This document shows positions 1 through 15,589 of a stretch of 15,589 nt of DNA, piece by piece. The notes beneath the pieces are model-generated. The model worked only from the letters and a program-made list of their open reading frames with translations, did no database searches and was not told where the DNA came from. Every line of letters begins with the position of its first letter. Within the stretch, counting starts at the first letter, position 1. Both the position numbers and the translations under genes were made by a program. The stretch lies in the UHGV virus genome UHGV-0166683. One strand, written 5' to 3'. The DNA is from a virus.

Positions 1-1
1 T

Positions 2-895: not shown

Positions 896-1231
896 CATTG
901 CTAAACAGCCATCAACAAACCCCATTGCAGTTTGCAGTTCCTTCCTAATTGTGCCATCAGAGCATTTTCTCTTCTTCGCAATAGTGCGTAATGAGATACC
1001 GATAACAAAGTGGGCGATGATGAGCTCATATTCCTCTGGTTTATACCTTCTCAACCGAGCCACACAACTGTCTATCATGATGCCTTCGTCATCATCACAC
1101 TGAATCCGTGACTTTTTGCCATGAGGTAAAAGTCCCTTGAAACCAGCCGCTATCGGCTGCCAGTCCACTCCGCTATTGTCTGAAGCAGCCCAAGCTCCCC
1201 AACGATCCATTACTTCATACATATCACGCAT
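875..1231 (-). CDS. Phage antitermination protein Q (lambdoid Q family)
   Basis: The DRWGAWAA..GVDW motif and the size (118 aa) fit this family, and the gene sits distal to the nin-type genes. The ATG at 1231 is preceded by GGAGAAAGTTG. The track start at 1246 is a TTG with no SD. Confidence 0.8.
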   Translation of the reverse strand: MRDMYEVMDRWGAWAASDNSGVDWQPIAAGFKGLLPHGKKSRIQCDDDEGIMIDSCVARLRRYKPEEYELIIAHFVIGISLRTIAKKRKCSDGTIRKELQTAMGFVDGCLAMLAYSMA

Positions 1232-1248
1232 CAACTTTCTCCACAAAA

Positions 1249-2244
1249 TCAGGCCAACACACCAATTGCCAGCGCACGATCGATAAAACGAAATATCAAC
1301 TCCAGCTGGGAGCCATACTTCTCTTCAAATGCCACGGTATCCGCATGCAGCTCGTCGTGATGCTTTCTGCACAAAGGCAGCACAAAGAGATCATGCGCTT
1401 TTGTACCCATTCCCCCCTGACCGTGGCCTATCAGATGGTGGGGATCATCAGCAGGCTTTCCACAACATGCACACGGCTGCGTCTTAACCCAGCGCGTGTA
1501 CTTTTCATTAACCCAGCGGCGACGTTTTGGGCGTAACATAAAAGACTCCGGCGACTCCGGATCCACTTTCAGCGCCAGCACCTTTTTAGCTTTATCCTGG
1601 ATGATGCTGGTGGCAGGAACCGAAGGCACAAGGTCACTTTCCCGGGTGACAGATGGCACAACAGGCTTCGGTAATCTCAGTGCCTTACGGGCTGCACTTT
1701 CCGGTAAGGCATCCGCCAGATCATTACGAACCAGCCACCAGCACAGTTCCGGCATTGTCACAACGTGACTGTCATCAAAACCGAGATCCCGACGCACGAC
1801 AGACAACACCCAGCGGGCACAGTTATCCGTTGCCATTGATTCCAGCCGTTCCGTGAACTGGTCACGCAGCTGGTTATCGCAGTGCCAGCACAGACGAATT
1901 GCTCCCGGAGCGTGCCGCATTGTGGTCATGTTCTCGCTGTGCCAGTCAGAATGAGGCCACTGACAGCCCTTTTCACGAAGTAACCAGCTTTCAAGACATT
2001 CCACGCCACCAGCACGACGGATCACTGCCTCATTGCGGAACACGGTCCGAACGGCAGGATCATCCGCCAGCGGTTGTGATGCCGCCGGAACGGCACCACT
2101 GGCGAAAGATGAATAACGTTCCGGCTCTGGCTCCAGCAGGACACGCCCCTGCATAAACAGGGGCATCAGCTCTGAACCTGGCCTGAACAATACGATCCCC
2201 ATACGCGGGGCAATTTCAGGCGTCAGTAGTGCTCTCACGGTCAC
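1249..2244 (-). CDS. DUF968-family prophage protein (YdfU-like) with a Cys/His-rich C-terminus
   Basis: C-terminal CACCGKPADDPHHLIGHGQGGMGTKAHDLFVLPLCRKHHDELH is typical of DUF968 proteins found between rusA/ninG and Q. The start is uncertain: GTG at 2244, or GTG at 2238 after GAGG. Confidence 0.7.
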   Translation of the reverse strand: MTVRALLTPEIAPRMGIVLFRPGSELMPLFMQGRVLLEPEPERYSSFASGAVPAASQPLADDPAVRTVFRNEAVIRRAGGVECLESWLLREKGCQWPHSDWHSENMTTMRHAPGAIRLCWHCDNQLRDQFTERLESMATDNCARWVLSVVRRDLGFDDSHVVTMPELCWWLVRNDLADALPESAARKALRLPKPVVPSVTRESDLVPSVPATSIIQDKAKKVLALKVDPESPESFMLRPKRRRWVNEKYTRWVKTQPCACCGKPADDPHHLIGHGQGGMGTKAHDLFVLPLCRKHHDELHADTVAFEEKYGSQLELIFRFIDRALAIGVLA

Positions 2245-2245
2245 C

Positions 2246-3043
2246 TCAATGAACGGTATCGAGTAGCTTTAACAGCTCAGGGAATCGGGATTCGAAGAAA
2301 TGCGGCTGCGTCTCGCGCGGATTTGCGGGACTGGTGATGTTCTTGCCGAACATGCAGCCTTTCGCCGTCAGCGACCAGAATTTTTTGATGTTGTTAATCG
2401 CGGTACGGCTGTATCGTTCGCGCTGCTCGACGATCCCCAGCTTCACCATCTGGTGATATGCCTGATTAGCTGTCAGGCGGATACCATACTGCTTCAGCAG
2501 TGCACTCAGTGACAGCGTGGGGCGGCTTGAGCCATCAGGCGCGTCAGCAGGAGCATCAATGGCATAGCGCGGTGCCAGATTCGGTAAGCCAACAGCCTCC
2601 TGGAGTTTCTGACAGGCTCCAAGCACTGAAGAGTTAGACAGATTTAACTCCCGGCGCATAAAGTCCAGCAGAATCACGCCAGCCTGCATCTTGTCAGCAG
2701 CCTGTCCGGATAATTTTTCAGGTGCGCTGGTTACCATGTCGAAAGTACGGATCACCTTCAGATGGAATGACGGGCTGATCCACATTGCATAGGCATACAC
2801 CAGTTCTTTGCAGACATACGTCCCCTGGTTATTTCCGCCACGAATAACGTTAACTGGCTCTATATTGACCGAGTTGCAAATCTGCAACTCGCTTATTAAA
2901 CGTTCAGTTTGCTCATTGCGGAGCCAGAATGCAGGCTTATGCTTATCCAGAGAACCGGCAGCCCTGTGCAGATCGTTCAGGCTGTAACGACCATAAGCAT
3001 CACGACGAACTTCAATACCATCAATGACCATCAGATTATTCAT
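2246..3043 (-). CDS. KilA-N domain protein (antirepressor-like)
   Basis: The N-terminus MNNLMVIDGIEVRRDAYGRYSLNDLHRAAG..KHKPAFWLRNEQT matches the KilA-N pattern. A GAGGAG SD lies upstream of the ATG at 3043. Confidence 0.75.
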   Translation of the reverse strand: MNNLMVIDGIEVRRDAYGRYSLNDLHRAAGSLDKHKPAFWLRNEQTERLISELQICNSVNIEPVNVIRGGNNQGTYVCKELVYAYAMWISPSFHLKVIRTFDMVTSAPEKLSGQAADKMQAGVILLDFMRRELNLSNSSVLGACQKLQEAVGLPNLAPRYAIDAPADAPDGSSRPTLSLSALLKQYGIRLTANQAYHQMVKLGIVEQRERYSRTAINNIKKFWSLTAKGCMFGKNITSPANPRETQPHFFESRFPELLKLLDTVH

Positions 3044-3062
3044 ACTTCGTTTCTCCTCTTAA

Positions 3063-3452
3063 TCAGGCGGCTGCACCCGCCGGTTTCTCGTACTTACTGA
3101 TAGTGATCTCGACCTTCCCTTCCGGGATAACCGGTCCCCACTCCACCAGCATTCTTTTCACCTGACTGTCGTCTTCCCACACACCCGCGTGGGTCAGGGC
3201 GTCAAACAGCGCCTTGTTATAGTTGTCCAGATCGCGGATCCGGTTATCCGGAGGAAACAACACGATCTCCACTGAAGCTGGTGCCGACGTTGGTTTCGGC
3301 AGACGGCGTAACTGCTCAATGATGGCGGCACACGCCGCGCCCTGGAATTTACGCCCCGCCGCGCTTATCAGGCTCTTACCTGCAAAAGCCCCTTTGTTGG
3401 GGTGTCGCCAGTACGTGTTCACGCTGGGGGGAAACGGCAGGATCAGCTTCAT
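3063..3452 (-). CDS. rusA: Crossover junction endodeoxyribonuclease RusA (Holliday junction resolvase)
   Basis: LPFPPSVNTYWRH and RDLDNYNKALFDALTHAGVWEDDSQV align with E. coli RusA motifs. An ATGA overlap links it to the upstream gene. Confidence 0.9.
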   Translation of the reverse strand: MKLILPFPPSVNTYWRHPNKGAFAGKSLISAAGRKFQGAACAAIIEQLRRLPKPTSAPASVEIVLFPPDNRIRDLDNYNKALFDALTHAGVWEDDSQVKRMLVEWGPVIPEGKVEITISKYEKPAGAAA

Positions 3453-3775
3453 ACTTTCAGGCCCCTCTCATGTAACCAGTGGGCTGCACGCAGCCTGGCG
3501 TTTTCCTCACCAGCAAGCAGTGCGCGGATAATCCCGGCCACCTCGCTGTCGTCGTCCTTCACCGCGGTATGAAGAGTTATCCCCCGGGCCACGCCACGCT
3601 TTATCGTGATGACGCCTTTTTTCTCCAGTGCGCGAAGATGCTCCACCGCTGCATTCACTGAACGGTATCCCAGCATGGTTGCCACCTCCTGATTGGTTGG
3701 CGGGAAGCCACGTTCTTTCTGGTAAGAAATCAGCATATCCAGCACCTGCTGCTGGCATTGAGTTAACGTCGTCAT
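3449..3775 (-). CDS. LexA DNA-binding-domain-like winged-helix protein with no S24 peptidase domain
   Basis: QQQVLDMLISYQKERGFPPTNQEVATMLGYRSVNAAVEHLRALEKKGVI resembles the LexA N-terminal domain. At 108 aa it has no Ala-Gly site or Ser/Lys protease part. It has ATGA overlaps at both ends. Confidence 0.7.
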   Translation of the reverse strand: MTTLTQCQQQVLDMLISYQKERGFPPTNQEVATMLGYRSVNAAVEHLRALEKKGVITIKRGVARGITLHTAVKDDDSEVAGIIRALLAGEENARLRAAHWLHERGLKV

Positions 3776-4425
3776 GCCGCCATCTCCCTGACCAGTTTTT
3801 CCGCCTGCTGGCGAACCTGCGCCAGAAAGGCCTCACCACATGCCTCAAGTTCATCGCGCCCGATGTAGCTGATTGCCGATCCCTTCCAGGTCTTGTCGAA
3901 AACAGCAATAGCACCAGCGAAGAAAGCACCTGTCGGCACCTGCTTCTCGTCCTTCGGTATAAACCAGGCAGGTAGTTCAAAACCAATACGCCCGCGAATA
4001 AAAGCAATATGATCTGCATCTTCCGGCCACCACACTTCGCTGGTAGCTGCTTTGATCAAGAAAACATAGCGCCCGCCTTTATCACGCATGGCACTGGCAT
4101 GCTTCATGATGTAACGCATGCCGGTGATGTATTGCCCCTCATGCTGACTGGCGCGGCTGTATGGGGGATTACCAAAGGCAGCACCTTTAAGCTCCGCAAG
4201 ACGTTCTGACCAGTCATGCGCCAGCGCGTTGTCTTCCGCCGTGTAATACGCGGCACATTTGGCGTTATCACCGTCAGTGAACAGATCCAGAACAAACGGG
4301 CCAAACAGGGTGTTAATTCCCCAGAAAATGTTGTCCGGCGTGCGCCACTGATCGCCCACTTCCTTCAGTTCATGGGCTGGTTTGTTCCGCAGTTCCACCA
4401 GCGCCTGCCAATATTTATTACTCAT
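3772..4425 (-). CDS. Phage-type DNA N6-adenine methyltransferase (Dam family)
   Basis: Contains DQWRTPDNIF, LDLFTDGDNAKC and the catalytic FGNPPYS motif. The start is set at the ATG at 4425, which overlaps the upstream stop as TAATG; the 11-codon extension in the track lacks support. Confidence 0.85.
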   Translation of the reverse strand: MSNKYWQALVELRNKPAHELKEVGDQWRTPDNIFWGINTLFGPFVLDLFTDGDNAKCAAYYTAEDNALAHDWSERLAELKGAAFGNPPYSRASQHEGQYITGMRYIMKHASAMRDKGGRYVFLIKAATSEVWWPEDADHIAFIRGRIGFELPAWFIPKDEKQVPTGAFFAGAIAVFDKTWKGSAISYIGRDELEACGEAFLAQVRQQAEKLVREMAA

Positions 4426-4913
4426 TAAGCCCCCACGTAATTCCCTGACAGATACCACTCATCACCCGATACAGCGCACTTGCTGCTTTTCCGTAAGCAC
4501 CGCTCACGGCGCGCCAGAAAATTGTTTCGTTCTGGCTGGGAGTGGCTTTCACGGAATGCCGCCATCCACACGGTTGCAGCACGACGGTATAAGCCCCTGG
4601 ACTCCAGTTCTTCAGCCTGGCGGGTCAGGCACAAAATTACCCGTGGATCGTTAGTGCCGACATAGAAATTGCGCACAGGTCTGGTTTCACGAACTGGTTG
4701 TGGTTCCGGCTCCTGCGCTCTCTCAGTCAGGCGCGGGAAATGTCTGCGTGTATCTCCTTCACAACGGTGAGCCACACGCCCACTCTGACGTAACTTGCTT
4801 GCTGACTGCAGAACGCGCTGCCGTGAGTAATCTGCAAAAGCATCCGCAATGTCTCCGGAAGTACACCCCGGATGGGCTTCAATGAATTTCTGAACGTCAT
4901 TTAACAGACTCAT
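4425..4913 (-). CDS. PerC-family transcriptional regulator-like protein (winged-helix N-terminus plus PerC-like C-terminus)
   Basis: AEELESRGLYRRAATVWMAAF...ARRERC resembles the PerC/Pch signature (LERAGLWRRAA.W...RR..C). The ATG at 4913 follows a GGGGG SD. Confidence 0.6.
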   Translation of the reverse strand: MSLLNDVQKFIEAHPGCTSGDIADAFADYSRQRVLQSASKLRQSGRVAHRCEGDTRRHFPRLTERAQEPEPQPVRETRPVRNFYVGTNDPRVILCLTRQAEELESRGLYRRAATVWMAAFRESHSQPERNNFLARRERCLRKSSKCAVSGDEWYLSGNYVGA

Positions 4914-4915
4914 GA

Positions 4916-5857
4916 TCACCCCCTGAATCCTGCCGGGATCTGGCTGTAGTCCACATTGTCGTAACTGGATTTGAAGTACGGGTCTTCGCGTTTTTCGGTG
5001 TACGTGCTTACGGACGGCGATAAGCGCAGGGAAAGCTCATCCCATTTTTCCCGCAGCTTCGACGGGCTGAGCACGTTACGGCACCAGAACGGATCGCGGC
5101 TGACGCGGCTGTACATCTCGCAGATTTGTTTGTGAGTACGACCATCCTGCACACACATCAGGCGAATTTCGTTTGCCCAGGCTGTCCAGTTCGGTTCTTT
5201 GGGACGAACCACCTCGCCGTCACATTCGGCAGCCTGCTCGTACAGGGCGATGATTTTTTTCCAGAGCCACTGTGCGCAGGTCAAATCATCCTGCGTCCCC
5301 CACTGGCGCTTTTTAGGGCTGAATACAACCGCATCAGGATGGCGAGTTAAAAAATCCTGTTCAGCCGTCTGCGTGTCCGGTTGCGAAGCGTCCGGACGAG
5401 AAGGTTTTTTATCTGACGGATCATGTTTTGATTTTACTGACGGATCCCCGCCAGATTCTGACGGGTGAAAACCTGCTTTTTTGCCAGATTTCGACGCATC
5501 AAATTTTGACGGGTCAGATTTTGATGCGTCAGATTTTGACGGGTCAGAATCTGACAGTTGAGAAAATGCCGCTGCCTGAAGCTTCGCAACGTTAAGCTGA
5601 TAAACATTCGACGCATTGCGGTTACCCTGGCGACGCGCCTTACGCGTTAACCAGCCTTCTGCTTCCAGCCGTGCGATAGCCGTTCTGACGGTACTCATCC
5701 CCGCGCCAATCTGACGGGCAATGGTTTCAATTGATGGCCAGCACACACCTTCGTCATTACTGAAATCAGCCAGGCGGGCCATAATTGCCACGCTGGATAA
5801 CTTCATGCCTGATGCAGCGCAACCATCCCATACATAGCCGGTTAATTTAGTGCTCAT
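4916..5857 (-). CDS. Replication initiator, O-like (N-terminal HTH, repetitive linker encoded by ori iterons)
   Basis: An N-terminal winged-HTH (SIETIARQIGAGMSTVRTAIARLEAEGWL) is followed by a DPSKSDASKSDPSKFDASKS linker encoded by tandem DNA repeats. It lies downstream of cro and cII, as in lambdoid phages. Confidence 0.75.
   Translation of the reverse strand: MSTKLTGYVWDGCAASGMKLSSVAIMARLADFSNDEGVCWPSIETIARQIGAGMSTVRTAIARLEAEGWLTRKARRQGNRNASNVYQLNVAKLQAAAFSQLSDSDPSKSDASKSDPSKFDASKSGKKAGFHPSESGGDPSVKSKHDPSDKKPSRPDASQPDTQTAEQDFLTRHPDAVVFSPKKRQWGTQDDLTCAQWLWKKIIALYEQAAECDGEVVRPKEPNWTAWANEIRLMCVQDGRTHKQICEMYSRVSRDPFWCRNVLSPSKLREKWDELSLRLSPSVSTYTEKREDPYFKSSYDNVDYSQIPAGFRG
5411..5563. repeat. 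Putative phage replication origin iterons inside the O-like gene
   Basis: There are five head-to-tail 15-bp units at 5489-5563 (tttcgacgcatcaaa, ttttgacgggtcaga, ttttgatgcgtcaga, ttttgacgggtcaga, atctgacagttgaga). Related copies lie at 5411, 5435 and 5456. Each has a dyad core TGAC-nn-GTCA. Confidence 0.65.
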
Positions 5858-6026
5858 GACCGACCTCTATTTCCCTGAATTTACGACGAAACTGTTCGAG
5901 CGGACTGAAGCATTCATGCTCATAACCTTCGCGGAGGTAGATAACCCGTTGTGTTTCCGGTTCCCAACGAATGACTCTGACGGGCACTCCGTAGTGATCT
6001 TTGAACCAGCGGTTAACTTGTCGCAA
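5847..6026 (-). CDS. Small 59-aa protein (resembles DUF4222-type prophage proteins), TTG start, hidden in the -1 frame of the 112-aa ORF
   Basis: It is absent from the ORF track, being below 60 aa. A perfect AGGAGG (6034-6039, complement) lies 7 nt before the TTG at 6026. Translation is [59 protein letters not shown]. The stop overlaps the O-like start by 11 nt. The sequence reads as globular, unlike the frame-A tail. Confidence 0.5.
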
Positions 6027-6205
6027 AGGACTGCCTCCTTCTGCCGGTTGAAATCACCCACAGCCCACTCTGCAAAGCTGTGGGTTACAATTTCCCTGTC
6101 ACCTGGTACATTCACTGCATAGCAATACTCCACCTTCGCTTTTCCACCCGGAACCGGAAGCGCAATCAGTTGCGAGCGACGGTAGTGTGTTGTTAAACTG
6201 TTCAT
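5867..6205 (-). CDS. Hypothetical protein (112-aa ORF); only the N-terminal part looks like genuine coding sequence
   Basis: An ATGA overlap links it to the CII-like gene stop. The N-terminal ~60 aa are plausible, while the C-terminal half is Ser/Asn-rich and overlaps the better-supported 59-aa ORF in another frame. Confidence 0.4.
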
Positions 6206-6765
6206 GCGTTAGTTTCTCCACAGTCACGACACGCCACGGCGCCCGGAGCTGCACACTCGCGGGCGTCACTACTTTCTGAAACGCAAAAGATTTTGTAGAC
6301 CAGTGCTGCATGCTCCTGCAGCTTCGAAATTGAGAGGTACAGCTCGTCGTTAATTGCTGTCTTCTCATGCGGTTCCACTACACCGTCTTCGATTGCTGAA
6401 CGAATCTGTTTTGAATAACTGCCGATCTGTTCAATGACCTCCAGCAGGCGTTGGTTGATATCGGCATTGTCCACATCCTCGACGTCAGGAAGAGACACAA
6501 AGACGCCATTTGCAGACTGCGCCACAGCATCAGCAATGAAGTGAGTGCCACCAGCACGCTGCAAAACCATTGCCCATCCCAGCGGGAAAATCTGATCGCC
6601 ATCTGCACGAAGGCGGTTGAATAAAGCGTTTTCTGTTACATCGAGCCAGTCAGCCGCTTCAGCGTAACCACCCGGCAACGCCGCGATAGTTTTTCTGACA
6701 GCTTTCACGTACCACTCAGGCTGTTTTTCTATTTTCCAGTGATGCTTACCCACGATTAGCCTCAT
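6202..6765 (-). CDS. CII-like phage regulatory protein (CP76/186-CII-type architecture)
   Basis: It lies directly after the cro-like gene. [28 protein letters not shown] resembles the HTH region of 186-type CII proteins. The start is uncertain: ATG at 6765, or GTG at 6753 after GAGG. Confidence 0.5.
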
Positions 6766-6796
6766 CGTTCTGTGGTTAAAAATTGAAAGTGTTCTG

Positions 6797-6997
6797 CTAA
6801 TCTTTCGGATAGATATCCGGTCTTAAGTCAGATTTCGTAATTGCACCTGATGTGTATTGCTCAAGTTTTTTAGCCAGCACAAAACTGGCTTTTTTATAGC
6901 CATTGAAAACCAGCCGTAAGTAGCCAGGTGTTGAGCCAACTTTTCCGGCCAACTCGCCCTGCTGTTCTTTGGTTAAAGAGTCCCAATACGCTTTCAT
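6797..6997 (-). CDS. Cro-like / YdaS-family HTH regulator (66 aa)
   Basis: The internal ATG at 6997 is preceded by a GGAGG SD. The sequence is MKAYWDSLTKEQQGELAGKVGSTPGYLRLVFNGYKKASF...LRPDIYP, and the RPD ending matches YdaS/Cro-like proteins. It diverges from the CI gene. The upstream 101 codons of ORF 6797..7300 cross the operator region and are rejected. Confidence 0.75.
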   Translation of the reverse strand: MKAYWDSLTKEQQGELAGKVGSTPGYLRLVFNGYKKASFVLAKKLEQYTSGAITKSDLRPDIYPKD

Positions 6998-7003
6998 ACA
7001 ATA

Positions 7004-7020
7004 TGTACCTCCGGTGTACA
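7004..7020. promoter_or_regulatory. Candidate CI/Cro operator (OR1-like)
   Basis: TGTACCTCCGGTGTACA is a 17-bp near-palindrome matching TGTACC-N5-GGTACA with one mismatch. It overlaps the cro SD and the predicted PR start region. Confidence 0.55.
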
Positions 7021-7047
7021 TATTACATGATTGAAATGAACCTTCAA
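7020..7047 (-). promoter_or_regulatory. Candidate PR-like promoter for the cro-like operon
   Basis: On the minus strand: -35 TTGAAG (7042-7047), a 16-nt spacer, then -10 TAATAT (7020-7025). A weaker operator-like 17-mer, TGAACCTTCAAGATACT (7037-7053), covers the -35. Confidence 0.4.
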
Positions 7048-7052
7048 GATAC

Positions 7053-7081
7053 TTGTACCTTAACGGTACAAGGGTTTTAAT
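7053..7081 (+). promoter_or_regulatory. Candidate PRM-like promoter giving a leaderless or near-leaderless cI mRNA
   Basis: -35 TTGTAC (7053-7058), a 17-nt spacer, then -10 TTTAAT (7076-7081). The cI ATG at 7088 has no SD, as for lambda cI transcribed from PRM. Confidence 0.4.
7054..7070. promoter_or_regulatory. Candidate CI/Cro operator (OR3-like)
   Basis: TGTACCTTAACGGTACA is a perfect TGTACC-N5-GGTACA palindrome, extended to CTTGTACC/GGTACAAG. It lies between the -35 and -10 of the predicted PRM. Confidence 0.6.
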
Positions 7082-7087
7082 TTCGTT

Positions 7088-7762
7088 ATGAAAACAATCC
7101 ATGACATCCGGCGGTCTAACGCCAGAAAACTGAGAGATGGTGTTGGCGGGAATTCTTCCTTTGCCACTATGATTGATCGCGAGCCAACCCAGACCAGCAG
7201 GTTTATGGGAGATGGTGCTACTAAAAATATCGGTGACAGCATGGCACGACACATCGAAAAATGTTTCGACCTGCCTGTAGGATGGCTCGATCAAGAACAC
7301 CAGACAACGAACATCACAAAAAAACCTGATGTTTCAATCACTAATAAACAAATCACATTAGTCCCTGTCATATCATGGGTACAGGCCGGAGCATGGAAAG
7401 AAGTTGGATATTCTGAGGTTGATTTGAGCACAGCAGAAACGTATCCCTGCCCTGTACCCTGTGGGGAAATGACTTATATCTTGCGGGTGATAGGTGATTC
7501 AATGATTGATGAGTACCGCCCGGGAGACATGATTTTTGTCGATCCTGAAGTACCTGCCTGCCACGGTGACGACGTTATTGCATTGATGCACGATACAGGT
7601 GAAACCACCTTCAAAAGGTTGATAGAAGATGGGACACAGCGTTATCTCAAAGCGTTAAACCCAAACTGGCCTGAGCCTTACATTAAGATCAACGGTAATT
7701 GCTCTATAATTGGTACTGTGATTTTCTCAGGAAAACCAAGAAGATACAAAATCAAAGCCTAA
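7088..7762 (+). CDS. cI: CI-type prophage repressor (HTH plus S24 LexA-like autopeptidase domain)
   Basis: The C-terminal S24 motifs are RVIGDSM (Ser) and TFKRL (Lys). A candidate cleavage site lies at VQAGAW. The gene diverges from the cro-like gene. Confidence 0.9.
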   Translation: MKTIHDIRRSNARKLRDGVGGNSSFATMIDREPTQTSRFMGDGATKNIGDSMARHIEKCFDLPVGWLDQEHQTTNITKKPDVSITNKQITLVPVISWVQAGAWKEVGYSEVDLSTAETYPCPVPCGEMTYILRVIGDSMIDEYRPGDMIFVDPEVPACHGDDVIALMHDTGETTFKRLIEDGTQRYLKALNPNWPEPYIKINGNCSIIGTVIFSGKPRRYKIKA

Positions 7763-7774
7763 TCAATGTTTATG

Positions 7775-7798
7775 AACCTGCTTCGGCAGGTTTTTTTA
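7775..7798 (+). terminator. Rho-independent terminator after cI
   Basis: The stem is AACCTGC/GCAGGTT with a TTCG loop, followed by a run of T's. Confidence 0.75.
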
Positions 7799-7801
7799 TA
7801 C

Positions 7802-7829
7802 TTGACAATGTGCCTTTGAGATACATAAT
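7802..7829 (+). promoter_or_regulatory. pL-like early-left promoter
   Basis: -35 TTGACA (7802-7807), a 16-nt spacer, then -10 CATAAT (7824-7829), immediately after the cI terminator. Confidence 0.55.
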
Positions 7830-7845
7830 GTACCCAAGAGAAACA
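7809..7845. promoter_or_regulatory. Candidate OL operators (two 17-mers)
   Basis: TGTGCCTTTGAGATACA (7809-7825) and TGTACCCAAGAGAAACA (7829-7845) each have two mismatches to TGTACC-N5-GGTACA. They bracket the -10 of the pL-like promoter. Confidence 0.4.
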
Positions 7846-7935
7846 ACAAACAGGCAGGACGCCCACGAAGTAGCCGCCTGGGGCATATGAAGTCCAGGAT
7901 GATTCGTTAGCGGATGATTTCAGTGGAGAGAATAG

Positions 7936-8244
7936 ATGAATGAGCAGGATTTGAAGCATGTGATCGCATTGTTGCTGGAAGACGCTAAACGTTTGCAGCA
8001 GATAGAGCCAAATGCAGGCACTGAGGCCCGTATTTTGTTAGCAAAACAGGCATTAAAGACTTGCGAGGCGCAAGACCCTGATCGAACCAAGTTCATGAAT
8101 TTCATGGCTAACACGATCACCCCACTGCCATGCAATGGAGAGAGGGTGAGCCGTGTTTATCACGACACAATGGTTAAGGCATTAAGAATCGAGCTTGATG
8201 GGCTTAGGCGTAAGATCGTGATGAACAAAATCGTTGCCAACTAA
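7936..8244 (+). CDS. Hypothetical 102-aa protein, first gene of the early-left transcript
   Basis: A GGAGAG SD lies 5-6 nt before the ATG. The sequence looks helical. There is no arginine-rich N-terminal motif, so it is not an N-type antiterminator. Confidence 0.6.
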   Translation: MNEQDLKHVIALLLEDAKRLQQIEPNAGTEARILLAKQALKTCEAQDPDRTKFMNFMANTITPLPCNGERVSRVYHDTMVKALRIELDGLRRKIVMNKIVAN

Positions 8245-8523
8245 GGAAGCAGACGGAAGTAAGCATGCGCTTTGTTCAAATTTGCAGACAAATATATTTG
8301 CGTCAACACCAGCACTGTTAGCAATGGAAAAAGTTTGATCAAGGATTTGTTGGCAGTTCATTGTGCTTTTGAGGATATATCCCTCTGGAATCAGTCTGCA
8401 GCAGCTATCGTCAGACTCTTTGATTGTTTTCTGGTACAGAAAGTTAAGCATTAATTCTTCAAATTTTTTGGTCTGTTCGGCTGTTGCTTCAAACAGACGA
8501 ACGTGAACATAAAACTGGTTCAT
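8182..8523 (-). CDS. Hypothetical 113-aa protein, opposite in orientation to the surrounding operon
   Basis: The ATG at 8523 is preceded by AAGGAAA. The N-terminus is MNQFYVHVRLFEATAEQTKKFEELM. The gene is lower in GC than its neighbours, and its 3' end overlaps the 7936..8244 gene by 63 nt. Confidence 0.5.
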   Translation of the reverse strand: MNQFYVHVRLFEATAEQTKKFEELMLNFLYQKTIKESDDSCCRLIPEGYILKSTMNCQQILDQTFSIANSAGVDANIFVCKFEQSACLLPSASLVGNDFVHHDLTPKPIKLDS

Positions 8524-8666
8524 TAGGTTTCCTTGCTGGCTGTGTGAGAACTCCAGCATACCACCGAGCCTGAAGTGGTGAAAAGACAGGCAATAGTTTC
8601 ATTGCTGTGTGTAGTCCTGGCGGTACCAGTTTGTACCCTTGCTTCCGGCTGGTACCGCTCTTTTTA

Positions 8667-8753
8667 CAAAACAGAGAAGAGCATCACCGGACGACGGGCT
8701 CATAACCCAATCCATCCGGGCGGCTGCCACCGCAGGTGTTCTTCTCTGTTTTG
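8667..8753 (+). repeat. Long inverted repeat (17-bp arms, 16/17 complementary, 53-nt spacer) in the leader of the yfdP-like gene
   Basis: CAAAACAGAGAAGAGCA (8667-8683) pairs with TGTTCTTCTCTGTTTTG (8737-8753). The single mismatch would be a G-U pair in RNA. Confidence 0.6.
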
Positions 8754-8802
8754 TGGAGAAACCAACCGACCTTGCAGGGTCGATATGATGAGGAGCAGCA
8801 AA

Positions 8803-9165
8803 ATGGCTAGCGAACGCGGTACTGATGTGCAGGCATTTATCGGGGAGCTGGACGGCGGCGTATTTGAAACCAAAATCGGCGCAGTTCTCAGTGAAGTCGC
8901 TTCCGGTGTGATGAACACGAAAACCAAAGGTAAGGTCTCACTCAACCTGGAAATCGAACCATTTGATGAGAACCGTGTGAAAATCAAACACAAACTCTCA
9001 TATGTTCGCCCGACTAACCGCGGGAAAATTTCCGAAGAAGACACCACCGAAACGCCGATGTATGTCAATCGCGGTGGGCGCCTGACTATTCTGCAGGAAG
9101 ACCAGGGACAATTACTGACTCTTGCCGGTGAGCCTGACGGAAAACTCCGCGCAGCAGGTCATTAA
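8803..9165 (+). CDS. yfdP: YfdP-like prophage protein (120 aa)
   Basis: The ATG at 8803 follows a GAGGAG SD. The size, and the position directly upstream of yfdQ/yfdR homologues, match K-12 CPS-53 gene order as I recall it. The GTG-initiated 76-codon extension in the track is rejected. Confidence 0.65.
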   Translation: MASERGTDVQAFIGELDGGVFETKIGAVLSEVASGVMNTKTKGKVSLNLEIEPFDENRVKIKHKLSYVRPTNRGKISEEDTTETPMYVNRGGRLTILQEDQGQLLTLAGEPDGKLRAAGH

Positions 9166-9230
9166 TATCGTTCTTAATTAACTGATTATTTACCTCATCA
9201 CTGAATATCTTTATATAGTGAGGACTTATT

Positions 9231-10055
9231 ATGTCTCAGAACTTAGACGCAACCGCAATTAATCAAATCCATGCCCTTATTTCTGCTCAGGGTGTTAATG
9301 AAATTATCAGTAAGATTGGTGCCGACGCAGTGGCATTACCTGAAAATTTCCGCATTCATGATCTGGAAAAATTTAATTTAAATCGCTTCCGTTTCCGTGG
9401 CGCGCTTTCCACTGCCTGCATCGATGACTTTACCCGTTATTCTAAAGATCTTGCAGATGAAGGCACCCGCTGCTTTATCGATGCCGATAATATGCGTGCC
9501 GTCAGTGTTCTTAACCTGGGTACTATTGATGAACCAGGTCACGCAGATAATACCGCCACTCTCAAACTGAAAAAGACAGCACCGTTCTCTGCACTGTTGT
9601 CTGTTAACGGCGAGCGTAACTCCCAGAAGTCACTGGCAGAATGGATTGAAGACTGGGCCGACTACCTTGTGGGCTTTGATGCTAATGGTGACGCCATTCA
9701 GGCAACCAAAGCGGCTGCGGCGATCCGTAAAATCACAATTGAAGCGAACCTGACTGCTGATTTTGAAGACAATGACTTCAGCGGCAAACGCTCCCTGATG
9801 GAGTCTGTCGAAGCGAAGACCAAAGACATTATGCCAGTGGCATTTGAATTTAAATGCGTTCCGTTTGAAGGCCTGAAAGAACGTCCGTTTAAATTACGCC
9901 TCAGCATTATCACTGGCGATCGTCCTGTACTGGTACTACGCATTATTCAGCTGGAAGCAGTGCAGGAGGAAATGGCTAACGAATTTCGTGATCTGCTTGT
10001 TGATAAATTCAAAGACAGCAAAGTAGAAACCTTTATTGGTACTTTCACCGCCTGA
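9231..10055 (+). CDS. yfdQ: YfdQ-like DUF2303 family protein (274 aa)
   Basis: The length and the start [21 protein letters not shown] match my recollection of E. coli K-12 YfdQ. A GTGAGGA SD precedes it. Confidence 0.8.
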
Positions 10056-10067
10056 TTTCATTACTGC

Positions 10068-10089
10068 AAATGCCCCTGCGGGGGCATTT
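10068..10089 (+). terminator. Hairpin / possible weak terminator after yfdQ
   Basis: AAATGCCCC-TGCG-GGGGCATTT is a perfect 9-bp stem with only a short T tract, so it may be an attenuator or stabiliser. Confidence 0.5.
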
Positions 10090-10183
10090 ATGGAAACGTA
10101 ATTGACTCAATAATCGCCTGATGGCGAGGGTTTTCTTTAACCAAAATTCAGCGCGGTGCAGCGCATATAACGTGGAGAACAAA

Positions 10184-10720
10184 ATGTCATTTATTAAAAC
10201 TTTTTCCGGGAAGCATTTTTATTATGACAAGATAAATAAAGACGACATCGTTATTAACGATATCGCGGTTTCCCTTTCAAATATCTGCCGCTTTGCAGGA
10301 CACCTTTCACACTTCTATAGCGTCGCCCAACATGCGGTGCTTTGCAGCATGCTGGTACCGCAGGAATTTGCTTTTGAAGCATTAATGCATGATGCAACAG
10401 AAGCGTATTGCCAGGACATTCCCGCACCACTGAAACGCCTTCTTCCTGACTATAAACGGATGGAAGAAAAAATAGACGCCGTAATCCGTGAGAAATACGG
10501 GTTACCTCAGGCTATGAGCACGCCCGTGAAATATGCCGATCTCATCATGCTGGCAACCGAACGCCGCGATCTCGGGCTTGATGATGGCTCTTTCTGGCCA
10601 GTATTGGAAGGTATCCCGGCAACAGAGATGTTCGAAGTTGTTCCTCTGGCTCCTGGCCATGCCTACGAGATATTTATGGAACGTTTTAAAGAGCTGCATA
10701 AGATACATAAGCAATCCTGA
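10184..10720 (+). CDS. yfdR: YfdR-like HD-domain 5'-deoxynucleotidase (178 aa)
   Basis: The ATG at 10184 follows a GGAGAA SD. MSFIKTFSGKHFYYDKINKDDIVINDIAVSLSNICRFAGH and the HD motif ALMHDATEAY match K-12 YfdR. Confidence 0.85.
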   Translation: MSFIKTFSGKHFYYDKINKDDIVINDIAVSLSNICRFAGHLSHFYSVAQHAVLCSMLVPQEFAFEALMHDATEAYCQDIPAPLKRLLPDYKRMEEKIDAVIREKYGLPQAMSTPVKYADLIMLATERRDLGLDDGSFWPVLEGIPATEMFEVVPLAPGHAYEIFMERFKELHKIHKQS

Positions 10721-10775
10721 CAGCGAAATTAACTAGTGAAATAGTTTTGTAGCAAAAGAAATGAGGTTATCAAAA

Positions 10776-11021
10776 ATGCTTCAAATGCTGACACTTGAGG
10801 AATGGGCTGCGGAAAAATTTAGGAGTAATCCTCCAAGTGTGTCCACATTGCGTCGTTATGCTAAGCAGAATTTATTTTGTCCACCAGCAATGAAACAAGG
10901 TCGACTCTGGCGAGTACGTGAGGACGCAGAGTTAGTTGGGGAATTAGTTACTCCAGTAATCAAGAAAAGTGATTCTATTATTCTGCAAAGGATTTTAAGC
11001 AATGGCAGCCAGACCACGTAA
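10776..11021 (+). CDS. xis: Excisionase (lambda Xis family)
   Basis: MLTLEEWAAEKFRSNPPSVSTLRRYAKQNLFCPPAMKQGRLW parallels lambda Xis (YLTLQEWNARQRRPRSLETVRRWVRECRIFPPPVKDGREY). It overlaps the int start by 20 nt, as in lambda. The start could be 10761, 10776 or 10785; 10776 has the best spacing from GAGG. Confidence 0.8.
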   Translation: MLQMLTLEEWAAEKFRSNPPSVSTLRRYAKQNLFCPPAMKQGRLWRVREDAELVGELVTPVIKKSDSIILQRILSNGSQTT

Positions 11022-12129
11022 AAATAATGTTTCAGTACCTAACTTGTATCCGCTTTATAGTAGAAAAGTAAATAAAGTCTATTGGCGATATAAGCATCCA
11101 GTGACCGGGAAATTTCATTCGTTGGGCACAAATGAAGCTGAAGCTATTGCTATTGCCACTGAAGCTAACACTCGTCTGGCTGAGCAAAGAACCCGGCAGA
11201 TTCTAGCTATCAGTGATAGGATCGCAACCAGCAAAGGAAAAGCGATCACAACGTCAACCTGGTTAGATCGCTATCAAGCGATCCAGGATGACAGGCTCAA
11301 AAGTGGTGATATAAGACTCAACACCTATAAGCAAAAAGCTAAACCAGTATCCTTGCTCAGAGAACGAGCAGGAATGAAGTTGATCTCATCCGTTGATGTT
11401 AGAGATATAGCACAATTGCTTGATGAGTATATTGCAGCTGGACAGCCTAGAATGGCCCAAGTCGTTAGGTCTGTATTGATCGATGTGTTTAAGGAAGCAC
11501 AGCATTATGGCGAAGTTCCGCCAGGGTATAACCCTGCTCTTGCGACGAAGCAACCCAAAAGAAAAATTACCCGTCAACGCCTCAGCCTGGAAGAATGGCA
11601 AAAAATATTCGATATAGCAGACGCCAGTCATCGTTACATGGGAAATGCCATGCTCCTAGCTTTGGTCACTGGGCAGCGTTTGGGAGATATATCCAAAATG
11701 AAATTTAGTGATATTTGGGAAGATCATCTTCACGTCATTCAGGAAAAGACTGGAAGCAAAATCGCTATCCCTCTTTCTCTTCGCCTCAATGCGATTAACT
11801 GGAGTTTACGCGATGTAATAGCCCGCTGCCGTGACTATGCAGTCAGCCCATACCTAGTGCATTTTTTCCGTTCAACTTCACAAGCAGAACGTGGGGCACA
11901 GGTTAAATCCAATACATTGACGATGAACTTTAGTAAAGCGAGAGATTTAGCAGGAATTGACTGGGGTGATGGCTCACCCGCAACATTCCATGAACAAAGA
12001 TCGTTATCTGAACGCCTGTACAAGGAGCAAGGGATAGATACCAGAAAGCTACTTGGGCATAAAACACAACAACAAACCGATCGTTACCATGATGACCGAG
12101 GGAAAGGTTGGAGCAAAGTAGCTTTGTGA
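11002..12129 (+). CDS. int: Lambda-family tyrosine integrase
   Basis: Catalytic motifs are VTGQRLGD (Arg), FHEQRSLSERLY (His-x-x-Arg), LLGHK and DRYHDDRG (Tyr). These are collinear with lambda Int. Confidence 0.92.
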   Translation: MAARPRKNNVSVPNLYPLYSRKVNKVYWRYKHPVTGKFHSLGTNEAEAIAIATEANTRLAEQRTRQILAISDRIATSKGKAITTSTWLDRYQAIQDDRLKSGDIRLNTYKQKAKPVSLLRERAGMKLISSVDVRDIAQLLDEYIAAGQPRMAQVVRSVLIDVFKEAQHYGEVPPGYNPALATKQPKRKITRQRLSLEEWQKIFDIADASHRYMGNAMLLALVTGQRLGDISKMKFSDIWEDHLHVIQEKTGSKIAIPLSLRLNAINWSLRDVIARCRDYAVSPYLVHFFRSTSQAERGAQVKSNTLTMNFSKARDLAGIDWGDGSPATFHEQRSLSERLYKEQGIDTRKLLGHKTQQQTDRYHDDRGKGWSKVAL

Positions 12130-12340
12130 GCGTTTAAGTTTCTCAATCCCACATTAATTATCTCATCACACATGTAACAGGCCCAAACAGACTGCTCTGA
12201 GCGACGAACCGTTGTTGACCAGTAACGCCATAGAGTATATTCAGTAAGTGTTCCAATGTATATAAGAAATGCGCTGTGTATATTTTTAATTCAAAATAGT
12301 TTGAAGCACAATCATGAAACAGATTCTTATGAATACAAAA

Positions 12341-13456
12341 TTAAATTAAATCAAATAGCCCATGTTCATCTATAGCCTTTGAACTAATTAAGTTCGCGGC
12401 TTCTATGTCATTGTCACTTGCCTCAGAAATAAGGAAAAATGAATCAACATGATTTTGCAAAATAATTTCCTTATACTTCTTGAGCCATTGTAATTTACCT
12501 GTAGTGAACAATACTTTACGCGGTAGCAAAATACGGCTAAAAACTGATGGAAGATACTCACTTCTATTAAATGGAATAAAAGGGTCGCCTAAAGAAAGAA
12601 TAGTTAGACGATTAAATTCACCGTGCGAATTCAATTTTTCAGCTGATTTGGCTATACCACTTGGTAAAAAAACACCTGTCTTGATACCGTTGCGTAAAGC
12701 AACAACAGCCATCATTTTATCAAAGGCAGTACCTCCAAATAATAAGGAATATCCTTTTTTAACAGAAAGATCAATAGTATCAAGAACAACTTGTTTTTCT
12801 ATATCACTTGGTGACGTGCTCGAAATTATCGAAAGATCAAAATCAGTAAATAACTGCCCAGTATAATAAAGATTTTTGCCGGTGAAAGTTGACAACTTTA
12901 AAGGAAACATTTTATCATCATGCTTAATTTCAGATACATTAAGATCTGTTAAGGATGGATAGTTAAAGTTTGGTGAGGCTTTTCCGTGTTTATTATTTTT
13001 TGATGCCTGCGGACTAAAAACTAGAATTTCATTTTTATTATTACACAGGTAATCCTGTATCATTTTTTTTACAATATCCCAATCAAGACCACCGTGACCA
13101 CAACCTAAAGCTGGCAGGGTGATTGTTTTTCCATGTTTATTATCCAAATATTTCGAGAGCCAATGCAGTCCTTTTTCGATATATTCGTACTTAGACTTAT
13201 TTCTCCAATGATCCTTGGTGGGAAAGTTTATGATTTCTATTTCCTTACCATACGTATCATTACCTTTCCAAACAGCTGGTCTTCCTGGAGATATTTCTCC
13301 TTTTTTACACAGCAATACGTATTCATTATACATTTCAGGAAACTTATTCTTAAAAGCAAAAGCAACCCCTGCCCCCATTACACCAACACAATTAACTGTA
13401 TTAATTCTAATGTCAGCAGCATAATCGAAAAAATCACCATCAACATATCTAATCAT
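12341..13456 (-). CDS. darG: DarG-like macrodomain protein fused to a C-terminal DprA-like (DNA-processing A / SLOG-type Rossmann) domain, 371 aa
   Basis: Macro motifs are NTVNCVGVMGAGVAFAFK, INFPTKDHWRNKS and LPALGCGHGGLDW. The C-terminal half parallels the DprA core: GKNLYYTG..LSIISSTSPS, LLFGGTAFDKMMAVVALRNGIKTGVFLPSGI and ILSLGDPFIPFNRSEYLPSVFSRILL. The start is set at the ATG at 13456, preceded by a perfect AGGAGG; the 42-codon upstream extension has no SD. Confidence 0.8.
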   Translation of the reverse strand: MIRYVDGDFFDYAADIRINTVNCVGVMGAGVAFAFKNKFPEMYNEYVLLCKKGEISPGRPAVWKGNDTYGKEIEIINFPTKDHWRNKSKYEYIEKGLHWLSKYLDNKHGKTITLPALGCGHGGLDWDIVKKMIQDYLCNNKNEILVFSPQASKNNKHGKASPNFNYPSLTDLNVSEIKHDDKMFPLKLSTFTGKNLYYTGQLFTDFDLSIISSTSPSDIEKQVVLDTIDLSVKKGYSLLFGGTAFDKMMAVVALRNGIKTGVFLPSGIAKSAEKLNSHGEFNRLTILSLGDPFIPFNRSEYLPSVFSRILLPRKVLFTTGKLQWLKKYKEIILQNHVDSFFLISEASDNDIEAANLISSKAIDEHGLFDLI

Positions 13457-13926
13457 AAAACCTCCTTTGGTCAGAGTATACATCCTTATTTCTGGCTCTT
13501 CAATTCTATTGTCAAAAACTTTTACAAAGTCTGCATCAGTAAAACTGATGGCGCATTTTAAAATTAAAATCAATATGTCCATATCAAACGTTATATTTGT
13601 TATTTTTTGTATTTATTATTCATATCCATCATGTGCTATTAAATCGCCCAAAAGAACATAATAAATTATGTGCACCACTTTCTTCTTATTGAATTTTGGA
13701 TTACATTACGATCTAAATTAGATCTTTTGCCAATATCATAAACATATGCAGCAAACGTTGCAACAAGCTGTTCTCATTCTAACAGTTAGTAGAATATAAA
13801 CTCTGTAATTAGCACACTGAATTCCCTTCATCTATGAGTTACAACATCCTTTAAGTGAATAGTATTGTTAGTTTAAATCTATTAATATCATTCATAAAAC
13901 TATTTTATATAGTTAAAGTCATTATA

Positions 13927-13954
13927 AATCCATCTGAATATATACAGATGGATT
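13927..13954. repeat. Perfect 10-bp inverted repeat (AATCCATCTG / CAGATGGATT, 8-nt loop) in the AT-rich spacer
   Basis: Read directly from the sequence. On the minus strand it is followed immediately by TATAAT (13921-13926, complement). It could be a terminator for the DarT-HD gene or an operator. Confidence 0.5.
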
Positions 13955-14163
13955 CTGCCAATAGTCTTTGCAGGTGAAGTGCATGTTATATATTTTTTAG
14001 GGAATATATTTTCTAATTATTTCTCAGATAAAAATTTGCAGAACGAAATTACTTTACATAATACCGAATGTTACAGATTATTTTATTGCATATAAGCATT
14101 GAACTAACCACTATCACAGTGACTATGTTAATCATAAAATCTGCATCAAATTCAAAAAGCTCC

Positions 14164-15510
14164 TCATAAACTGTTCCCCTGCAATCTTTGGAGAACTTCA
14201 TCCCGGAGATCATCGATCCCGTCAGAAACCTGAGCTAACCAAACTTGACTTAATGAGCCAATATCAGCCTTACTTAGGGCTACTAACATATTGATATCTT
14301 CAGAAGATGTAACTATATCGAACAACTGATTTTTATTCCTCCCTTTAGCTACTATTTCCCCCAATAAATCATCATACGTAACTAACATCATTATTTTTCT
14401 AACTAGATCGGTTTGTATGACTGGCAGATCTTCTGTCAAAATTCGTTGTAGCATCGCAAGTGACTTCCTAGGATGCTCTCCATCTGCCTCATGCATGTAA
14501 TTATTATTCCAACGTGTTTTAGGCCCTTTGCCTATATCATGCAAATAAGCGGCCAACTCCAAAACTTCCTGATGAATAGAGTCTAATTGATAAAACTCTG
14601 GTGAATTAACTACAAGACTAGCCACTCGTCGACTATGAGAGCCAACATCTTCATTATGAGGCCCGTAGCTCGTCCCCAATCCATCGATATCTTCAAGCTC
14701 TTGGATGGAGGAGAAATTACCACGAATTGCACTTAGAGCATCACTAATACTTTGAAATTTTGGCCTCGTTTCTCGTTGAAATGAAGTTACATATTCAATA
14801 GCTTCATCAAAAAGCATTTTTAACACTACCGGTCCCGTGACTAAGGATGAGGACCAGTTTCCAGGTTGATAATAATAATGTTGAAAATCACCCTCAACAA
14901 TATTTGGTGGAACAATACCTTTGTTCTGGAAAATACTCCTCACAATATCAGACATAGAACGATTCCATGTAATTATCTGATTTATTTCGCTTAAAGAGAC
15001 ATGATCTGGCAGCAAAAGTTCTGCCATCTTTTTATGCCTCTGAGTCTCGTCAGCATAACCCCATGCATTATTATCTATGGTAGCCCAATCTAATACATCA
15101 AGCTGGTCAGCTTGAGTATTACCAGAATAAAAGTTCGGTGGATTAACTGTATTTGCGGAAGCATCTGTAAAATATGACCCATTCCTTGTTTCGAGTGATA
15201 ATATAGAAACTGAAAGATAGATAATAAATTGCTGATCTACATTTTTTTTATGAAGAACAGACAATTGCATGGGCGTTTTTTTTGCAAAATAAAAAGGAAC
15301 ATAATCATGAACACAACGACCATTCGTATTAGGCACCTGCATCACTGCCCTACGCCCCTGTATTCCTTCATCAGCAACATTCACATGTGATATACGACGT
15401 GCAATTTTCTGATTAGTCGAAAACAGCCCAGTTTCAATTATTGATTCAAGATTATCTACTGACGTAAAGTGATATGCATTTCGGTGTCTATGGTGAACAG
15501 GAACTGTCAT
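14164..15510 (-). CDS. darT: DarT-like (DUF4433) DNA ADP-ribosyltransferase domain fused to a C-terminal HD phosphohydrolase domain, 448 aa
   Basis: DarT motifs occur in the canonical order: AYHFTSVDNLESIIETGL, RCVHDYVPFYFAKKTPM, SYFTDASAN, LDVLDWATI and KKMAELLL (E164 at the catalytic Glu position). HD motifs are HSRRVA (H292), AAYLHDIGK (H324 D325), EHPRKS (H346) and TYDDLLG. Confidence 0.85.
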   Translation of the reverse strand: MTVPVHHRHRNAYHFTSVDNLESIIETGLFSTNQKIARRISHVNVADEGIQGRRAVMQVPNTNGRCVHDYVPFYFAKKTPMQLSVLHKKNVDQQFIIYLSVSILSLETRNGSYFTDASANTVNPPNFYSGNTQADQLDVLDWATIDNNAWGYADETQRHKKMAELLLPDHVSLSEINQIITWNRSMSDIVRSIFQNKGIVPPNIVEGDFQHYYYQPGNWSSSLVTGPVVLKMLFDEAIEYVTSFQRETRPKFQSISDALSAIRGNFSSIQELEDIDGLGTSYGPHNEDVGSHSRRVASLVVNSPEFYQLDSIHQEVLELAAYLHDIGKGPKTRWNNNYMHEADGEHPRKSLAMLQRILTEDLPVIQTDLVRKIMMLVTYDDLLGEIVAKGRNKNQLFDIVTSSEDINMLVALSKADIGSLSQVWLAQVSDGIDDLRDEVLQRLQGNSL

Positions 15511-15513
15511 GTA

Positions 15514-15589
15514 CTGATGAATCCCCTAATGATTTTGGTAAAAATCATTAAGTTAAGGTGGATACACATCTTGTCATATGATCAAATGG
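15514..15589 (+). mobile_element. IS10: IS10 (Tn10-type) outside end, truncated by the window edge
   Basis: CTGATGAATCCCCTAATGATTTTGGTAAAAATCATTAAGTTAAGGTGGATACACATCTTGTCATATGATCAAATGG is the well-known IS10 outside terminus. The transposase ATG would lie about 30 nt beyond the window. Confidence 0.9.

Follow-up and report, generated by a model that had tools for sequence, protein, structure and literature searches.

The UHGV virus genome UHGV-0166683 was analysed as a single stretch of 15 589 nt, here called the window. It is the part of an e14-like prophage nearest the integrase, and icd is the site of integration. Towards its right end lies an intact open reading frame (ORF) on the minus strand (14164–15510) encoding a protein of 448 amino acids with a DarT domain followed by an HD domain, here called DarT-HD, with its ATG start codon at 15510–15508. 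A second intact gene, encoding a DarG-like macrodomain protein of 413 amino acids (macro/DarG; 12341–13582, minus strand), lies downstream on the same strand, separated from DarT-HD by a spacer of 581 nt (13583–14163). Only three bases (GTA on the plus strand, TAC on the minus strand) separate the DarT-HD ATG from the terminus of the insertion sequence (IS) IS10, and the window ends inside this element. An earlier note on this DNA had described an IS10 outside end at this position, with the outward promoter pOUT facing the gene. Here we examine the junction, the native allele from which it derives, and the probable effect of the insertion on DarT-HD.

The IS10 outside end

The final 76 bases of the window (15514–15589, plus strand; CTGATGAATCCCCTAATGATTTTGGTAAAAATCATTAAG...) are nt 1–76 of the IS10 outside end, reading into the element. 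CTGATGAATCCCC begins at 15514, and the terminal sequence CTGATGAATCCCCTAATGATTTT... of the outside end of IS10 (IS4 family) is present. IS10 carries a DDE transposase of 402 amino acids. The 76 nt starting at 15514 are 100% identical to IS10 ends in >2700 plasmids. In Tn10 of R100 the matching terminus is located 107 nt before the transposase ATG (which is at nt 108), and it is therefore the outside end, bearing pIN and pOUT. Within their first 76 nt the arms of Tn10 in plasmid R100 differ at four positions; the window has no mismatches with one arm and four with the other. The arm that matches at 76 of 76 positions is of the IS10-Right type, which we take to be the transpositionally active copy, the labels Right and Left following published IS10 sequences. 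Assignment to the IS10 inside end or to IS10-Left was considered and rejected, from the position of the transposase in R100 and from the mismatch counts (0 versus 4). The outside end thus lies 3 bp from the ATG, as the earlier note had it, with the terminus at 15514.

The presumed 9-bp target of IS10 lies at 15505–15513. It reads TGTCATGTA (TACATGACA on the strand of the gene) and covers the start codon and codon 2 of DarT-HD. In the native allele the sequence is contiguous across the target, as GGGGGA-TACATGACA-GTT. Compared with the published target consensus (PMC4574204), TGTCATGTA matches the strict form NGCTNAGCN at two of six positions, and the relaxed form NRCNNNGYN at three of four. 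A second copy of TGTCATGTA is presumed to lie at the far end of IS10. IS10 also uses non-consensus target sites.

The near junction has no exact match in the genome, metagenome and viral contig collections searched, and this insertion allele occurs in none of the complete RefSeq Escherichia coli genomes. The predicted far junction, GGGGATNNNNCAG-TGTCATGTA-TCCCCCATG with either IS10 end allowed, gave no matches in the genome and metagenome contigs.

RNA-OUT and the direction of pOUT

The IS10 segment contains the 3′ half of RNA-OUT (Rfam RF00240). Model positions 40–70 align at 15589 to 15559 on the minus strand with a score of 33.5 bits (E = 6e-5), the 5′ side being cut off by the end of the window. 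The score is below the gathering score of 41 bits solely because half of the model is present. As a control, the full-length IS10 of R100 was searched with the same model; RNA-OUT is found there at IS10 nt 115 to 46, antisense to the 5′ end of the transposase gene, with 98.8 bits. In the window RNA-OUT lies upstream of DarT-HD with both on the minus strand, and the 3′ end of RNA-OUT is 49 nt before the ATG. Since the 3′ half of RNA-OUT is on the gene strand, pOUT is directed into DarT-HD. Projection from the model would place the start of RNA-OUT at about window coordinate 15628, ∼39 nt past the window end, and pOUT itself would be expected at about 15628–15665. The orientation claimed in the earlier note, with pOUT facing the gene from just beyond the window, is therefore upheld by the RNA-OUT match together with the full-length control.

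A simple sigma70 scan misses pOUT on a bona fide IS10 and is uninformative for this promoter, and so we relied on the Rfam model and the literature. Other outward promoters of IS10, OUTIIp and pIII, are located at nt 1000–1230, near the opposite end (PMC11481808). These were discarded as the source facing DarT-HD because of that location. A pattern scan of the IS10 end found no terminator-like site. A review passage citing Simons et al. 1983 states that some pOUT transcripts reach neighbouring genes, at ∼10% of PlacUV5 (PMC9330008). Activation of adjacent genes through pOUT of IS10 is documented, for example for acrEF (PMC9330008; also PMC4574204).

The native upstream region

Seven complete RefSeq E. 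coli genomes have the locus, and most of them come from birds. They match window positions 1–15513 at 99.2–99.9% identity (six of them at 99.9%). All seven alignments with the window stop at 15513. One of the seven, MDR_56, has an IS50R within the DarT-HD gene. The native upstream region, which the earlier note had proposed to recover by comparison with IS-free alleles, was obtained from 13 IS-free loci in about ten E. coli assemblies. It is identical in all 13, reading ...TTTTTCATGGGGGATAC|ATG, or in longer form ...ACCTAAATTTTTATAGTTTTTCATGGGGGATAC-ATG. The Shine–Dalgarno (SD) region directly before the ATG is GGGGGATAC, with GGGGG located 4 nt from the ATG. A candidate sigma70 promoter, TTGATA-16-TACAAT (10 of 12 consensus positions), lies 58–85 nt upstream of the ATG. 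Further upstream on the same strand is icd, encoding isocitrate dehydrogenase, whose stop codon is 401 nt from the native DarT-HD ATG and is followed by a terminator comprising a hairpin and a T-run. Comparison with these alleles bears out the statement that IS10 displaces the native SD, the 5′ untranslated region and the promoter, the last being a candidate.

The ATG at 15510–15508 is the native start codon. The earlier note had allowed that IS-free homologues might place the start further upstream; this was ruled out, as an in-frame TAA stands at −30 in the native allele and none of ATG, GTG and TTG occurs between it and the start, the Prokaryotic Genome Annotation Pipeline (PGAP) annotates the same ATG in the IS-free allele, and the DarT profile matches from residue 13.

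Relative to the prophage of APEC O2-211 there are 13 single nucleotide polymorphisms (SNPs) in total, and all proteins checked are identical except for one LexA-like protein of 108 amino acids. The DarT-HD and macro/DarG proteins are identical to those of the IS-free alleles.

Translation initiation signals

With everything upstream of the junction replaced, the sole remaining SD-like element is AGGGGA at 15527 to 15522 on the minus strand, inside the IS10 end. It lies 11 nt from the ATG, or 12 nt from its last G. An in-frame TAG is located at 15528 to 15526 (minus strand), 18 nt upstream of the ATG, and therefore stops any translation entering from IS10 in the frame of DarT-HD. Both elements can be read directly in the sequence, where the earlier note had placed them. 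The native GGGGG is replaced by AGGGG, for which the computed pairing with the anti-SD sequence is −6.4 kcal/mol, compared with −8.4 kcal/mol for the native element. The spacing from the last G to the AUG is 4 nt in the native allele and 12 nt in the IS10 allele.

A transcript reading through from pOUT would have a leader of 118 nt, consisting of RNA-OUT and the IS10 terminus. In the predicted minimum free energy fold of this leader, AGGGG is paired with CCACC of IS10, and the 11 nt directly 5′ of the AUG are unpaired.

In both alleles a very short upstream ORF ends in a TGA that overlaps the DarT-HD start (ATGA). The native version is ATG GGG GAT ACA TGA (L001 7908–7922, minus strand). In the IS10 allele it has 13 codons and begins at an ATG in IS10 nt 39–37 (window 15508–15552, minus strand). 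Neither has an obvious SD, and the overlaps are probably due to chance.

The DarT-HD and macro/DarG genes

The DarT domain (PF14487) of DarT-HD spans residues 13–213, matching profile positions 1–200 of 201 with a Pfam E value of 5e-40, and the HD domain spans residues 290–361. PADLOC also labels the product of 14164–15510 as DarT. In the alignment with the crystallized Thermus DarT chain (7OMV), the glutamate in the KKMAELLL segment of DarT-HD is opposite an alanine in KKQAAFLV. We take this alanine to be the E160A substitution of the catalytic glutamate. The exact DarT-HD protein was found in 1616 blocks of the assembly collection, and a literature search found no paper describing the DarT-HD fusion.

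The macro/DarG gene is matched by the Pfam Macro profile (E = 4e-17) and by the PADLOC DarG model (E = 7e-58), and its product is the presumed antitoxin of DarT-HD. No terminator-like site was found in the spacer between the two genes. The spacer has a GC content of 27–30%, and the module as a whole 27–39%, compared with about 44% in the neighbouring prophage genes.

DarTG2 comprises the thymidine ADP-ribosyltransferase DarT and the macrodomain protein DarG (PMC11825919, PMC11543638). DarT-HD and its macrodomain partner would form a DarTG2-like module, with a putative role in toxicity and defence. The likeness extends to a DarT domain with glutamate where the crystallized mutant has alanine, a macro/DarG gene following on the same strand, and location at a prophage end beside the integrase. 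The module differs from DarTG2 in the C-terminal HD fusion, with 448 amino acids compared with 210 in the crystallized Thermus chain, and in the separation of the genes by the AT-rich spacer rather than tight coupling.

A second, stand-alone protein in the prophage, YfdR (178 amino acids, window 10184–10720, plus strand), is annotated in RefSeq as an HD domain-containing protein; it has no precomputed Pfam match. The exact protein is present in 571 blocks of the assembly collection.

Proposed effect of the insertion on DarT-HD

We propose that an IS10-Right-type element, standing alone or forming the IS10-Right arm of Tn10, transposed into TACATGACA, overlapping the DarT-HD start codon. The downstream copy of the target leaves the ORF intact, and everything upstream of −3 is IS10. 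If the element is full-length, the native GGGGG, the leader of ∼50 nt and the candidate sigma70 promoter have been pushed at least 1.3 kb away. Transcription into DarT-HD would then arise solely by read-through from pOUT, most of whose transcripts would end as the 70-nt RNA-OUT. Initiation of translation would rely upon the weaker, over-spaced and partly sequestered AGGGG, with the TAG stopping read-in. The macro/DarG gene would stay intact, and could be expressed from its own promoter or by the same read-through.

The most likely outcome, which we favour with moderate confidence, is a genuine transposition leading to a net strong attenuation of DarT-HD synthesis, and not to its abolition. Attenuation is favoured because the native promoter is lost, most pOUT transcripts end as RNA-OUT, and there is an in-frame TAG upstream of the start. 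The earlier note had offered silencing or attenuation, or else transcription driven by the IS, as alternatives; these are plausible, with the estimates made from sequence pointing to weaker translation and the literature supporting some read-through from pOUT (PMC9330008). There is a precedent for IS10 inserted between a promoter and an ORF under selection (PMC4574204).

A number of points weigh against this view. The native promoter is a consensus match only, with one site found where 2.4 are expected in shuffled sequences. With a suboptimal SD spacing of 4 nt, the gene may be poorly expressed even in its native state. The AT-rich locus may be silenced by H-NS, in which case pOUT could raise expression. 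Some initiation is plausible in the IS10 allele, since the stretch between AGGGGA and the AUG is predicted to be unpaired. The target fits the IS10 consensus poorly, the insertion allele rests on one sequence with no match in the public collections searched, the far junction is beyond the window, and the attenuation is predicted from sequence.

The opposite effect on expression would result if the native promoter were weak or silenced in an AT-rich moron, and constitutive read-through from pOUT with a very stable RNA-OUT 5′ stem-loop raised the level of both DarT-HD and macro/DarG. The direction of pOUT and its documented role as an activator are consistent with this (acrEF; PMC9330008, PMC4574204), as are the low GC content of the module, a native promoter match that is no better than chance, and the lack of a terminator between the two genes, which could share one transcript. 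We nevertheless consider activation unlikely. The replacement SD is weaker, spaced by 12 nt and predicted to be paired, most pOUT transcripts stop 49 nt before the ATG, and greater transcription of the toxin offers no obvious way to a viable strain unless the antitoxin also rises. Alternatively, the insertion may simply have no functional consequence, as a recent and unselected hop in a strain with an active IS10 or Tn10, bearing no relation to the cost of the module. Of 5426 complete E. coli genomes, 1878 (about 35%) have IS10 ends, a very recent event would account for the identity of both proteins to the reference, the allele has no second copy in the collections searched, and the module is AT-rich. 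AT-rich accessory DNA generally gathers IS elements. A neutral hop is thus a possible explanation, though not a probable one, given that an insertion separating the SD of a toxin gene from its ATG is one of the few that alter expression without loss of the ORF, and that the 3.8-kb module has taken no fewer than three further, independent IS insertions as well as one rearrangement among about 20–50 genomes, in a sample biased to unusual contexts.

The remaining alternatives concern the nature of the junction itself. A deletion, inversion or replicon fusion mediated by IS10 or Tn10 would leave non-native DNA beyond the element. Only a single junction is visible, neither predicted junction was found in public sequences, the target is a poor fit to the consensus, and in OU349843 the same module has been split, with a breakpoint in the spacer. 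Against these, a junction at exactly nt 1 of IS10 is common to both models and so is not positive evidence for a rearrangement, and the rest of the prophage, some 15.5 kb, is collinear with the IS-free genomes. Among observed IS10 junctions, simple insertions are far commoner than rearrangements. The visible junction could belong to a solo IS10, to Tn10 joined through its IS10-Right arm, or to a rearrangement mediated by IS10; the last is quite unlikely, and simple insertion is much the likeliest of these. A chimeric contig end joining unrelated reads is extremely improbable. The IS10 portion is 76 nt, equal to k−1 for k = 77, and the left window end is single-copy. However, a true junction is expected to give a contig that extends k−1 bases into a repeat, and the break coincides to the base with nt 1 of IS10 and with the point where the alignments of the seven complete RefSeq genomes stop. 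A break falling precisely on nt 1 of IS10 cannot have arisen by chance, nor would a chimeric misassembly be expected to produce it. The data suggest that the right end of the window is a short-read (de Bruijn graph) contig end inside the IS10 repeat. The possibility that the left end is also a repeat boundary was rejected, as it lies in single-copy DNA.

Other insertions in the module

In E. coli MDR_56 (NZ_CP019903.1, L002) an IS50R lies inside the DarT domain, at window-equivalent 15025–15037. It splits the gene, leaving a DarT pseudogene on one side and an ‘HD domain-containing protein’ on the other, and the length of the insert fits IS50 with a 9-bp duplication. The spacer has been hit independently in three other genomes, CP125351 (L012/L020), OZ039108 (L021) and OU349843 (L005/L017). 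The events there are a copy of IS5 at window-equivalent 13779–13782 (4-bp overlap, target CTAA), an IS3-family element at 13788–13791 and, in OU349843, a rearrangement with its breakpoint between 13879 and 13912 that leaves DarT-HD and macro/DarG about 2.8 Mb apart. The sample is small, and the look-up of module contexts by which these were found shows unusual contexts preferentially.

The earlier note had also seen in the insertion a clue to the cost of the module. This finds weak support. Other IS events do occur in the same module, but the sample is small and biased, the region is AT-rich and IS10 is widespread in E. coli. The repeated hits are suggestive of a burden, weakly so, and set against this is the presence of an IS in the module in just one of the seven complete RefSeq genomes that carry it. 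A more adaptive view would be that a costly DarT-HD/macro module has been repeatedly tamed, by IS10, IS50R, IS5, an IS3-family element and a rearrangement, with IS10 acting as a dimmer; a low, pOUT-dependent level of intact toxin would be made from an mRNA carrying the RNA-OUT stem-loop at its 5′ end. We regard this as doubtful. If it were true, the IS10 allele would be a natural hypomorph with which the cost and benefit of a DarTG2-HD defence system could be studied.

Comparison with known systems

Insertion sequences that rewire or silence their neighbours are textbook knowledge, and pOUT of IS10 is a classical example. Ciampi, Schmid and Roth (1982) and Simons et al. (1983) reportedly described IS10 and Tn10 switching adjacent genes on or off via pOUT. 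The present junction resembles the pOUT insertions known from acrEF in Salmonella and from pSU vectors, where IS10 lies between Pcat and cat (PMC4574204), in that the same element is involved, with its outside end and RNA-OUT/pOUT facing the neighbouring gene. As in the pSU case, IS10 lies between the promoter of the gene and its ORF. In that case, however, it was the other (nt 1329) end that faced cat, which kept its leader and SD (53 bp) (PMC4574204). Here IS10 is 3 bp from the ATG, and the ribosome-binding site is lost along with the promoter.

There is also a likeness to the inactivation or attenuation of toxins of toxin–antitoxin and defence systems by IS elements. A DarTG2-type toxin gene of a prophage has been hit with the antitoxin gene intact, and in MDR_56 the very same gene is interrupted by IS50R. 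The difference is that the coding sequence in the window is untouched and its expression signals are replaced, so that low-level toxin may persist. The proposed effect would be the standard one by which an IS eases the load of a toxin and leaves its gene in place, and the insertion could have been either selected or neutral. The insertion allele is new to the record, belongs to a very familiar class of event, and introduces no new principle. For the strain carrying it, the DarT-HD toxin is probably not normally expressed, and gene content would be an unreliable guide to phage defence. Taken with the IS50R, IS5 and IS3-family insertions found elsewhere, the allele is a hint that the module may carry a fitness cost.

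Prophage context

The LexA-like protein (3449–3775, minus strand, LexA DNA-binding-like) carries seven SNPs and four amino acid changes relative to APEC O2-211, with only six SNPs in the other 15.5 kb. This exact variant is found in 12 839 blocks and is very common among other lambdoid prophages; the cluster of SNPs is probably a recombination patch. At the left end of the window an ORF (1–895, plus strand) continues leftward. In APEC O2-211 it corresponds to a hypothetical protein of 404 amino acids beside a ‘nucleoid-associated protein’, and it is annotated as an ‘anti-phage protein’ in some RefSeq genomes (H59, H60).

In five of the loci (L004, L007, L008, L010 and L016) the DarT-HD end of the prophage adjoins an ORF of 50 amino acids at the position of the icd 3′ end, and not an intact icd. 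Beyond this ORF lies another prophage, with tail genes and a metal ABC-transporter cluster. We read the 50-amino acid ORF as a 3′ remnant of icd, which would mean that prophages are arranged in tandem at the icd site.

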